Notes under the pieces: generated by a model
The model's database searches: none
Told to the model about the DNA's origin: nothing
What the model saw: the letters and a program-made list of their open reading frames with translations, nothing else
Shown here: in pieces, positions 1 through 4,281 of the stretch
How positions within the stretch are numbered: position 1 is the first letter of the stretch
Layout of the letters: every line of letters begins with the position of its first letter
Source: a virus
Taxonomy: Duplodnaviria > Heunggongvirae > Uroviricota > Caudoviricetes
IMG/VR virus record: IMGVR_UViG_3300029190_000076
Reading direction: 5' to 3' (one strand)
DNA: 4,281 nucleotides
Made by a program: the position numbers and the translations under genes

Positions 1-334
1 GAAAGGCTGGGCCATACTCCTCCGGCAGAAGCAGAAAAAGCTTATTATGCTTCCATCGGAAACGATGATCTGGCAGCCTGAGTTCACAGATAAAACACTC
101 TCCAGGAAACCCGGGGCGGTTCACTACGACTTGGGAAGACGCTTCATACCAAAGTCTATAAAGTTTTTCTTCTTCGTTTGGGTTATTAGGCTCACCACGT
201 TTTAATTTTTCAGTATATAAAATTGTTGAATAAATCGCAGGAGTTAATCCAGTGATTGCCCTCTGCCGCAGATCGGATTTGTTTGTTATCCACCCCAACA
301 GACGATCTCCCATCCATGTGATAATTGTATCCAT
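1..334 (-). CDS. Hypothetical protein, partial: first 111 codons in window, ORF continues past the left edge with no stop seen
   Basis: Hand translation of minus strand from ATG at 334-332: MDTIITWMGDRLLGWITNKSDLRQRAITGLTPAIYSTILYTEKLKRGEPNNPNEEEKLYRLWYEASSQVVVNRPGFPGECFICELRLPDHRFRWKHNKLFLLLPEEYGPAF, open down to position 2. In-frame TAA at 340-338 just upstream of the ATG. AAGGG Shine-Dalgarno-like motif at 346-342, 7 nt before the ATG. Absent from the supplied ORF track, presumably because it has no stop inside the window. No family recognised from memory. Confidence 0.55.
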   Translation of the reverse strand, partial: MDTIITWMGDRLLGWITNKSDLRQRAITGLTPAIYSTILYTEKLKRGEPNNPNEEEKLYRLWYEASSQVVVNRPGFPGECFICELRLPDHRFRWKHNKLFLLLPEEYGPAF

Positions 335-795
335 GCTTTAGCCCTTCTTAGTAAATAGTGTGTAGGGCGACTGAAGGACCGAGTTTATGCTTTTTCGCAT
401 TGCTTTCAGTTAGTACACCGGTATCGCACCGGAAACAATCCTACGGCAAATTGGTTGTCTGACCTCTCGGTTTTTCGTGCATTAACCGATACCCACTACA
501 GTCTCGGCGAAAGCTGCACACCCCCAGGGTGTACTGGTAGCACTCGGCACAGCCTAGCACGCCACTTTCTTCTCACTATCCAGTCTAATTTTATCCCCTA
601 GTCAGACACTCAGATGTAGTGCTCCGCAGCGGCATGCGGGGGAATACAAAAACTCGGACAAAATTGGGCCCTCCTTTTTGAATCACTCGCGGGGATGTAG
701 TTATTAATACATGGAAAAAGATCTGTTTTCAAATCCAACATTATATGGTTTCAATACCACGGGGTGGCTATGTGTTTCTCATTGTTAATTGGAAT
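335..795 (-). other. 461-bp ORF-free spacer between two same-strand ORFs; candidate structured non-coding RNA or long 5' leader, function unknown
   Basis: After the TAG at 798-796 all three minus-strand frames hit stops within 15 codons, and stops recur throughout. The supplied track has no ORF on either strand between 335 and 763. Inverted repeats read directly on the + strand: 412-419 agtacacc with 528-535 ggtgtact (8 bp, about 108 nt apart); 378-383 accgag with 466-471 ctcggt; 370-375 actgaa with 405-410 ttcagt, enclosing 387-390 atgc with 397-400 gcat; local hairpin 518-523 acaccc with 527-532 gggtgt (3-nt loop). GC is visibly higher than in the adjacent recombinase gene. Confidence 0.3.
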
Positions 796-2757: not shown

Positions 2758-2940
2758 GGTGACACCTGCTAACGTATGCTTTTATAAACCTTAGTGGTGG
2801 GATATAATTTTTGTTTAATTTTTATTTAAAAAGACAATTAAGGTCACATTATCTTGAATATACAACAATAATCGTATTGCAATTTTCTTACGCCATAATC
2901 TTGAAAGCACAAAAGAATACATAAAAAAATAAAGACATTA
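2758..2940 (-). promoter_or_regulatory. AT-rich spacer upstream of the recombinase gene containing its RBS and presumably its promoter; exact -35/-10 not assigned
   Basis: Extremely AT-rich (for example 2801-2860 atataatttttgtttaatttttatttaaaaagacaattaaggtcacattatcttgaatat). Lies between the emrE terminator and the recombinase start. Several TATAAT-like hexamers are present, but none could be singled out by eye. Confidence 0.3.
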
Positions 2941-2982
2941 ACAAAAAGCATAAAACGAGGCTCATATAAATATAAGAGCCTC
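2941..2982 (-). terminator. Putative rho-independent terminator downstream of emrE
   Basis: On the minus strand, about 31 nt after the emrE stop: 7-bp stem GAGGCTC/GAGCCTC (+ strand 2957-2963 and 2976-2982) with a 12-nt loop, followed by the U-rich run GUUUUAUGCUUUUUGU (reverse complement of + 2941-2956). The loop is larger than ideal, hence moderate confidence. Confidence 0.45.
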
Positions 2983-3013: not shown

Positions 3014-3346
3014 TTAATGTGGTGTGCTTCGTGACAATAAATTAATAACCAACACACCGGCACAAATCAACATCATGCCTATAATGGCTGGCAGGTCCAG
3101 CCGTTGGCCGAAAAGTCCCCATGACAGTAAGCTAATCAGGACAATACCGACTCCTGACCAGATAGCATAAGCAATCCCTGTAGGAATATAAGCCAGCGTC
3201 TGAGCTAATAACCAGAATGATGCACAATAACAAATAATTGTACCAACAGATGGCCATAACCGTGTAAAACCTTCTGAAAACTTCATTAAGGTTGTACCAA
3301 TGACCTCTGCAAGTATTGCACCACCAAGATAAATATAAGGGTTCAT
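3014..3346 (-). CDS. emrE: SMR-family multidrug efflux transporter EmrE (110 aa)
   Basis: Product MNPYIYLGGAILAEVIGTTLMKFSEGFTRLWPSVGTIICYCASFWLLAQTLAYIPTGIAYAIWSGVGIVLISLLSWGLFGQRLDLPAIIGMMLICAGVLVINLLSRSTPH matches E. coli EmrE nearly residue-for-residue from memory. The membrane-embedded Glu14 essential for proton/drug coupling is present, with four hydrophobic segments. Start placed at ATG 3346-3344 rather than the track's 3400: this gives the canonical 110-aa length and has AGGAAAG at 3361-3355 upstream. Stop TAA at 3016-3014. Confidence 0.95.
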   Translation of the reverse strand: MNPYIYLGGAILAEVIGTTLMKFSEGFTRLWPSVGTIICYCASFWLLAQTLAYIPTGIAYAIWSGVGIVLISLLSWGLFGQRLDLPAIIGMMLICAGVLVINLLSRSTPH

Positions 3347-3413: not shown

Positions 3414-3716
3414 TCATTGTGTACCCATTGATGTTCTTTTATATACCCTCAATACCCGTTTCATCGCGGCACTCTGGCGACACTCCTTAAAAATCAGATT
3501 CGTGCTCACCTTTCCTTCCCGTTCTTCTCTGGTAGCAAACCGGTAATACACCGTTCGCCAGACCTTACCTTCGATAGCCAGAAGACCTGCCCGTGCCATT
3601 TTAGCCGCAGCCTGATTTATGCTGGTTACCGTTGCGCCTGTTACCGCGGCAACGTCCTGCGCACAGAATTTCTTATGAGTCCCCAGGTAATGAATAATTG
3701 CCTCTTTGCCCGTCAT
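3414..3716 (-). CDS. ren: Lambda Ren-like protein (100 aa)
   Basis: Product MTGKEAIIHYLGTHKKFCAQDVAAVTGATVTSINQAAAKMARAGLLAIEGKVWRTVYYRFATREEREGKVSTNLIFKECRQSAAMKRVLRVYKRTSMGTQ resembles lambda Ren from memory. The start ATG at 3716-3714 overlaps the stop TGA of the upstream P-like gene at 3715-3713 (ATGA), as I recall for the P/ren junction in lambda. Confidence 0.8.
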   Translation of the reverse strand: MTGKEAIIHYLGTHKKFCAQDVAAVTGATVTSINQAAAKMARAGLLAIEGKVWRTVYYRFATREEREGKVSTNLIFKECRQSAAMKRVLRVYKRTSMGTQ

Positions 3717-4281
3717 ACCCTTGCTCCTTTCAGCCCAAACTTAGCTTTGATTTCTGCGATCTTCGCCAGAGCCTGTGCACGATTTAGAGGTCTACCGCCC
3801 ATGACAGGAAGTTGTTTTACTGGTTCAGGTATAGCCTCACCACGGTTAATTCGTGCGGTCATACAGGACAGTTCATCGGCAGCCTTGCGCCGTAATTCCG
3901 CGTCAGTCAACGCATTGGCCCGCATGTTCTGATACAGGTTGGTAACCAGCCAGTAGTGCGCGTTTGATTTCCACGGATAAGACTCTGCATCCGGATACAG
4001 CCCGCGCTTCCGGCAATACTCGTAAACCATATCAACCAGCTCGCTGGCGTTTGGCAGCCCGGCGGTAACGGATGCTTCTTCCCGGCACCAGGCGACAAAC
4101 TGCCCGGGTGATGGCAGGAATGGTCGATTCTGCCGACGGGCTACGCGCATTCCAGCGTTAACCTGTTCCATTGTGGTGATCCCGTTTTCCCGAAAAGCCA
4201 GCACCCACTGGCGGCGGATTTCGTTCAGTTCATTCTGGTCACGGTTAGCCAGGCTCGCCGGGAAAGTTGCCAGTAACTGGC
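3713..4281 (-). CDS. P: Lambda-type replication protein P (DnaB helicase loader), C-terminal portion; 5' end lies beyond the right window edge
   Basis: Track ORF 3713..4204 begins at an internal GTG. Hand translation of 4205-4279 stays open in the same frame (QLLATFPASLANRDQNELNEIRRQW, then VLAFRENGITTMEQVNAGMRVARRQNRPFLPSPGQFVAWCREE...KAKFGLKGARV), so the gene continues upstream of the window. Sequence matches lambda P closely from memory. GC is about 53% on a hand-counted sample line. Confidence 0.85.
   Translation of the reverse strand, partial: QLLATFPASLANRDQNELNEIRRQWVLAFRENGITTMEQVNAGMRVARRQNRPFLPSPGQFVAWCREEASVTAGLPNASELVDMVYEYCRKRGLYPDAESYPWKSNAHYWLVTNLYQNMRANALTDAELRRKAADELSCMTARINRGEAIPEPVKQLPVMGGRPLNRAQALAKIAEIKAKFGLKGARV

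Follow-up and report, generated by a model that had tools for sequence, protein, structure and literature searches.

The window analysed here, a stretch of 4,281 nucleotides from the tailed-phage record IMGVR_UViG_3300029190_000076 of IMG/VR, contains at positions 335-795 a spacer that separates two minus-strand open reading frames (ORFs), one at 796-1119 and the other starting at 334. A sequence-only reading of this DNA had put forward the spacer as a candidate structured RNA, without stating its strand. The comparison with homologues that we present bears out this proposal, as part of the spacer is conserved as a unit amid unrelated contexts and shows compensatory base changes, and it places the RNA on the minus strand. 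Conservation covers 366-749 and not the entire spacer. We consider, with a probability of roughly 60%, that it is an autonomous RNA gene of about 330 nt, a moron of lambdoid prophages that is fused here as the 5' leader of the downstream gene.

The spacer is found in 159 of the 5,426 complete Escherichia coli genomes (about 3%) at 96-100% identity, and also in the isolated coliphages Turner and IdasGreatGrand, while its core recurs in four phage genomes and in many viral and metagenomic contigs. Copies of the segment 366-722 that are 78-83% identical occur in another E. coli prophage (locus L003) and in Klebsiella phages, among them Kp4856-1 (locus L004), and at both L003 and L004 the two flanks are unrelated to those of the window. 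More members were recovered from IMG/VR, metagenomes, Obesumbacterium proteus and Enterobacter bugandensis, the extra copies being gathered by exact-pattern scans of viral and metagenomic contigs and by look-ups around homologues of the downstream gene, which we have named MDT after the first residues of its 118-aa protein. The fetched loci include 136 fully flanked copies (some contigs were fetched more than once) that reduce to 42 distinct variants, and all members are 76-100% identical to the window. The conserved core of the structured RNA spans 331 nt on the minus strand (366-696), has its predicted 5' end near 696, ends with the bases CAGUCGCC at 373-366 and keeps this 76-100% identity in unrelated flanks. 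At least seven unrelated downstream families and at least eight upstream genes flank the element, none of the flanking genes has a known function or matches a defence-system model, and the downstream proteins gave no match in Pfam or PADLOC or to any toxin model. The element is conserved as a unit amid differing flanking ORFs. Outside these sources, a scan of one genome per species with a 20-base two-block pattern returned only six chance matches in unrelated phyla, and the exact two-block motif is absent from all GTDB representative genomes. Furthermore, plasmids gave no match to the element and no host paralogue of the RNA was found in the complete E. coli genomes. As far as these sequence searches reach, the RNA family is real but narrow, sporadic and restricted to Enterobacterales.

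Sixteen representatives were aligned in the sense of the window's minus strand (alignment A3) and folded with RNAalifold, which yielded a consensus fold of two domains and 97 pairs. Standard pairs occupy 97.0% of the paired cells of this alignment, compared with 33-46% when the partners are slid by 1-3 columns. The covariation across homologues that the structured-RNA proposal called for is present, since 20 pairs are changed on both sides, compared with 2-6 in the slid controls; the covariation score is 0.246, the slid controls giving about 0.05, and none of 500 column shuffles reached the observed value. In addition, of the 97 pairs, 92, 96 and 96 are formed at three loci found later, which had no part in deriving the fold.

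The compensatory changes lie mostly within the 3' domain (369-585, minus strand, helices H6-H18, about 220 nt), which is closed by a long-range helix (585-580/374-369) and combines a variable sequence with a maintained structure. They are found in H7 (576-572/481-477), H8 (569-564/514-509), H9 (563-558/542-536), H17 (438-428/422-413) and H12 (508-500/493-485), the last one showing as many as five pair types at a single position. The 5' domain (591-698, minus strand, about 105 nt) contrasts with this scaffold in being almost invariant in sequence in alignments A2 and A3. It holds an AAGGAGG motif and a 48-nt block that is identical in 13 of the 16 A3 representatives, and its predicted helices, H1 (698-691/598-591), H2 (690-683/643-636), H3 (680-675/652-647), H4 (671-668/659-656) and H5 (631-623/614-607), are compatible with pairing in 93-100% of cells. 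G-U pairs make up 12.3% of the paired cells, and when the helices are read from the opposite strand only 85% of the cells still pair. These figures, together with the orientation of the terminator described below, fix the minus strand. For extra pairings and pseudoknots, an all-against-all column scan was swamped by noise at so few lineages.

What had been said about the composition of the spacer holds. It is ORF-free in substance, as only ORFs of 31-48 aa lie wholly inside it and none is a credible gene, although two of them are annotated in the Turner phage record. Its GC content (0.45-0.535) is higher than that of the recombinase gene ybcK (0.31-0.39), and the C5 and G5 runs are there. Tandem Repeats Finder returned 0 rows over 300-850, in agreement with the absence of repeats of the antitoxin or CRISPR kind; ARAGORN detected 0 tRNA or tmRNA genes in the window; and a retron is likewise not indicated, as a reverse transcriptase is absent from the annotated 6 kb on either side of four loci and from the flanking ORF clusters of all loci. 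Rfam 15 (4,227 covariance models) gave no match on the spacer at E<=10, scanned both within the whole window and alone (411 nt, lax filters), and nothing on the element at E<=1 in seven homologous loci, so the statement that no known RNA family is recognisable also stands. The inverted repeats pointed out earlier fared unevenly. Three of them reappear in the consensus fold (378-383/466-471 as H13, 387-390/397-400 as H18 and the hairpin 518-532 as H11), whereas 370-375/405-410 and 412-419/528-535 are peculiar to the window sequence. The former pairing is superseded by the conserved long-range helix 369-374/580-585. The latter is perfect in the window and was rejected, as two of its positions hold in only about half of the homologues and it competes with the covarying H17.

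The conserved sequence begins about 55 nt before the folded part, in a promoter-like pattern. A -35-like hexamer, TTGAAA at 727-732 on the minus strand, matches five of the six consensus positions and is TTGAAA, TTGAAT, TTGTAT or TTGATA in nearly all variants. The 17-nt spacing that follows is conserved in length, its sequence varying freely among lineages, and leads to a -10-like hexamer in a conserved A/T-rich island (TATTAA at 704-709 on the minus strand; TTTAAT or TTAAAT in homologues), with the first conserved RNA base 7-8 nt later. We infer from this arrangement that the TTGAAA-17 nt-TATTAA site is a promoter. Two or three copies, at L070 and L099, have lost the -35-like TTGAAA because different sequence now precedes the -10-like hexamer. 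Further upstream, an ACCATAT box (743-749, minus strand) corresponds in many homologues to one arm of a CCATA-N5-TATGG inverted repeat; at L160 another palindrome takes its position. In Obesumbacterium the inverted repeat upstream of the -35-like hexamer is ATCGAAAGA-N8-TCTTTCGAT. This upstream repeat could be the operator for a regulator.

At the other end, a canonical intrinsic terminator lies 7-10 nt past the last conserved base in 15 of the 18 distinct variants that have no MDT gene downstream. It is usually a CCGCC-loop-GGCGG hairpin followed by a T run; L056 has a different hairpin of the same form (GCCACC-GAAA-GGTGG followed by T6), and both types were confirmed by scan. The terminator is absent in all 24 distinct MDT-linked variants, the window included, which comprise several RNA subtypes and genera and in which the MDT start codon is located about 31-34 nt past the core. 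In the window, the junction between the core and the downstream ORF (335-365, minus strand) is a 5' untranslated region with a ribosome-binding site, AAGAAGGG at 342-349, and because no terminator is present the RNA would run into the MDT gene, which has the same orientation and is probably co-transcribed with it. Two of the forms suggested earlier for the element thus hold in part: a stand-alone non-coding RNA fits most homologues, which have a promoter-like site and a terminator, but not the window lineage, while a long leader fits the window lineage, with no terminator before the ORF at 334, but not most homologues, which are terminated.

The window retains about 70 codons of the 5' part of the MDT gene (124-334, minus strand; 118 aa, WP_000379700), which is cut by an insertion sequence (IS). 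The gene is intact in L002 and in most genomes, where it is followed by ybcN, ninE, ybcO, rusA and Q. Its homologues are found in Escherichia, Obesumbacterium and Enterobacter, and it belongs to PHROG 12412, a family of unknown function; Pfam, PADLOC and NCBI names give no function for it. AlphaFold predicts a four-helix bundle (mean pLDDT 79.6) without a significant match in the PDB (best E = 0.41), the top matches being mostly designed helical bundles. An assignment as a HEPN toxin was discarded, as the matches were weak and no supporting Rx4-6H motif was seen on reading the alignment. A distant homologue (51% identity, L166) is located elsewhere in a prophage without the RNA. Among the 160 E. 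coli genomes that carry MDT, 59 match over just 66% of its length, a short form annotated in L006 as a 66-aa protein (PHROG 8527), and in these genomes the upstream RNA is still 96-98% identical. This, together with an IS that destroyed MDT and spared the RNA, suggests that the RNA is kept for its own sake.

Judging from its pattern of variation, the RNA core is not coding. The variable columns are distributed 48/46/54 over the three codon phases (p = 0.70), so that no periodicity is seen, 1- and 2-nt indels occur among members, and which stop-free frame is longest depends on the member. The longest translations have no match in Pfam or in the PDB, and a search with the translated antisense frame found ORF calls over the element in one 57-aa protein among 5.8 billion. 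The earlier suggestion of a decayed gene is not supported on these same grounds, that is, the lack of codon periodicity, the frame-breaking indels and the absence of matches in Pfam and the PDB. In the 5' domain, AAGGAGG is followed after 8 nt by a UUG codon that opens a 19-codon frame (656-677 on the minus strand, with the frame extending to about 604). Since 15 of the 16 representatives share this Shine-Dalgarno-like motif, its spacing and the frame, the element could be thought of as a dual-function RNA or as the messenger of a micro-protein, but we regard this as very improbable. About 35 nt of the frame are identical in lineages that are 20-30% different elsewhere, with almost no synonymous change, which indicates that the constraint is on the RNA and not on a protein. 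Moreover, the changes that do occur in the frame are more often non-synonymous than synonymous; L073 lacks the motif and has a frameshift and yet retains the fold; and the element as a whole has no codon periodicity.

In the explanation that we favour, an autonomous prophage RNA gene, transcription would start near 696 from the TTGAAA-17 nt-TATTAA site, and the unit could be expressed from a repressed prophage. Lineages that bear the terminator would make a discrete RNA product of about 345 nt, whereas in the window lineage, which has no terminator, the RNA would be the 5' leader of an RNA-MDT operon, of which the IS would have destroyed MDT and left the RNA intact. The invariant 5' domain may be the working part of the molecule, recognising a conserved partner of the host or of the phage, either protein or nucleic acid, and the 3' domain may serve as its folding scaffold. 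The RNA might then act in trans as a ribonucleoprotein or a decoy-type RNA and not as a small RNA (sRNA) that base-pairs through a short seed. This trans-acting step is the weakest one and we hold it with low confidence; we base it on the contrast between the invariant 105-nt domain and the covarying scaffold. Such a combination is the pattern of RNAs that recognise a conserved macromolecule or ligand. With regard to sRNAs of the Hfq type, a terminator with a U tail is found in 15 of the 18 non-MDT variants and is absent in the window, and both the length of 331 nt and a 105-nt invariant domain would be atypical for them. A broader version of the proposal, in which repressed prophages of temperate Enterobacterales phages would make an undescribed class of large structured RNA whose 105-nt domain would be an RNA-only or ribonucleoprotein effector, with MDT, always co-transcribed wherever it accompanies the RNA, as an optional protein partner, is tentative, and we think it is rather doubtful. 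If it were true, the effector RNA might block superinfecting phages or reprogram a host machine.

Several observations weigh against the autonomous RNA gene. The helices of the 5' domain, to which we tentatively ascribe the activity, are predicted and unproven by covariation, which says little about H1-H5 because this domain hardly varies. Since the members differ little (76-100% identity) and represent only a handful of lineages, the covariation counts exceed the true number of independent changes, owing to common descent. Folded by itself, the window sequence has an energy no better than that of its shuffles (z = -1.26), so that the inverted repeats alone are not beyond chance and the case rests on the comparison with homologues; in fact, the minimum-energy fold of the single sequence differs from the consensus fold. 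A scan for the sigma-70 consensus did not flag the promoter in the window or in L106, L056 and L100, because the -10 hexamer departs from the consensus at its second (A) or sixth (T) position. A discrete RNA is not guaranteed in the window lineage. Finally, no constant neighbouring protein appears among the flanking ORF clusters of all loci, and in the neighbouring phage DNA complementarity to the RNA revealed no recurring antisense or trans target, so no partner was found.

Among the other explanations, the main one is that the element works in cis, as a leader comparable to a riboswitch, attenuator or thermosensor, and controls the accessory gene that lies downstream, a possibility that we take seriously but consider unlikely. 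A same-strand gene always begins 30-110 nt past the element, the element is physically the 5' leader in the 24 distinct MDT-linked variants, window included, and the succession of promoter, RNA, terminator and gene is the order of an attenuator. However, the downstream families, at least seven, are mutually unrelated, unlike a riboswitch regulon; the terminators look constitutive; and by inspection no competitor of the terminator arm is kept across the three terminator types. Besides, the terminator is missing exactly where co-expression occurs, suggesting that elsewhere it provides insulation rather than regulation. It is considerably less probable that the element is a promoterless segment of the long early transcript from pR, which would work in lytic growth as a processing or stability element or as a put-like RNA, modifying RNA polymerase for read-through of the nin terminators. 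The spacer lies between the replication genes and ninB, a position that corresponds to that of tR2 on the lambda map, and the scan did not confirm a promoter. Yet the approximately 55 nt upstream are conserved in a promoter-like manner, with two hexamers and a free 17-nt spacer. As for a put-like function, the put RNAs of HK022 are about 70 nt long and are located just downstream of pL and pR, whereas the element is five times larger and far from both promoters.

The least probable of all is that conservation reflects a feature of the DNA itself, whether a module recombination boundary, a site for the YbcK recombinase or a gene remnant. The element is located at a junction where accessory genes are swapped, and a second non-coding block nearby is duplicated around the unit of RNA plus cargo. 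Nevertheless, a DNA site would not be expected to show compensatory changes or G-U pairs specific to one strand, and the element has neither protein homology nor codon periodicity. The idea that it might be a substrate of the adjacent serine recombinase is not supported by the comparison either, as the homologues in L003, L004, L006 and most other loci have no ybcK nearby. Because ybcK adjoins the element in one E. coli lineage only, we see no connection between the recombinase and the element.

The window is part of the nin region of a DLP12-like lambdoid prophage of E. coli, according to its annotated neighbourhood, and its bases 1-1,300 match the E. coli WP5-S18-ESBL-08 chromosome at 100% identity. 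Every gene of the window is on the minus strand, in the order replication genes (3414-4281), emrE (3014-3346), the large serine recombinase gene ybcK (1231-2757), a gene for a P22AR_C protein (796-1119), the spacer and the MDT gene, after which the prophage continues with ybcN, rusA and Q, so that the spacer is placed between the replication module and ybcN/ninB. The product of the ORF at 796-1119 (107 aa) is made up of the P22 antirepressor's C-terminal domain (PF10548) alone, and the ORF is either a truncated ant gene or the gene of a stand-alone domain protein. A frameshifted ylcJ pseudogene (about 2815-2965, minus strand), annotated in the identical RefSeq record, lies between emrE and ybcK. 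The GC content of ybcK, 0.31-0.39, is far poorer than that of everything around it, which suggests a separate acquisition. The right end of an IS3-family insertion sequence occupies 1-123 on the plus strand, outside the RNA unit, and its transposase ends at 81 in the annotation of the 100%-identical record. Genomes without this IS align from position 124 only, and the insertion is present in only three complete E. coli genomes, namely WP5-S18-ESBL-08 and two others.

Beyond the window, directly upstream of ybcN/ninB, there is a second conserved non-coding block of about 176-215 nt, which we have seen at L073 (3257-3432 and 4499-4674), at L002 (5630-5850) and also at L111 and L060. It starts with a promoter-like TTGATT-17 nt-CATAAT and has several hairpins, and 5 of its 33 pairs are changed on both sides. 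In some prophages it forms a 91%-identical direct repeat on either side of the unit of RNA plus cargo, a duplication that suggests that accessory genes are swapped via recombination within the block. Since the RNA sits where prophages swap accessory genes, it may have a role in conflict between phage and host or between phages. E. coli and the lambdoid phages are among the best-studied systems, and yet an RNA so large and so highly structured, present in isolated phages and in about 3% of the complete E. coli genomes, is absent from Rfam 15. Large RNAs in which invariant blocks alternate with covarying helices have usually proved to be ribozymes, riboswitches or the cores of ribonucleoproteins. 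The proposal made here is readily testable, as the hosts and at least two of the phages can be cultured and the transcript ends, the helices and the partner gene are all predicted.

Searches of the literature, by sequence strings and by topic, found no description of this RNA, and by the comparisons made here it fits no known family. The Pas sRNAs, PreS/LPR1, and the UG27 and TwoAYGGAY RNAs were considered and are different things. The type III toxin-antitoxin systems (ToxIN) resemble the present family in their gene order, with a single promoter, an RNA gene, an intrinsic terminator and a protein gene. However, antitoxins of the ToxI type are tandem direct repeats of about 34-36 nt that precede an endoribonuclease toxin gene, whereas the present RNA has no repeats and its downstream proteins are unrelated to each other and match no defence or toxin model. 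ROOL RNAs are about 580 nt and GOLLD RNAs about 800 nt long, and they are found mainly in Firmicutes. The RNA described here is smaller, about 330 nt, restricted to Enterobacterales and matches neither Rfam model, although it shares with them the character of a large and intricate RNA, often prophage-borne, with invariant stretches between covarying helices (PMC12286853).

Other RNA morons of prophages are DicF (prophage Qin), STnc6030 (prophage BTP1; 10.1101/787010) and the Pas sRNAs, which are likewise accessory, non-essential RNA genes of lambdoid prophages. Lysogens can express them, and their targets are RNAs of the host or of the phage. Their mode of action is base pairing, STnc6030 being an antisense RNA of the structural genes that it targets (10.1101/787010), whereas neither an antisense partner nor a complementary sequence was found in the neighbouring phage DNA for the present RNA, whose extensive conserved fold is unlike that of a seed-type sRNA. 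The nearest case in architecture is IsrK, from the Gifsy-1 prophage of Salmonella. IsrK is about 77 nt long, and the Rfam isrK model gave no sequence or model match to the element. It is a short sRNA tied to a specific downstream operon, in contrast to the RNA of about 330 nt, with a two-domain fold and unrelated downstream genes, that we describe. IsrK has its own promoter and terminator, and read-through gives a longer form that includes the downstream genes (PMC4825925). In the present family the free RNA and the leader would likewise both occur, but in different lineages, one that ends at its terminator and another, like that of the window, that continues into MDT.
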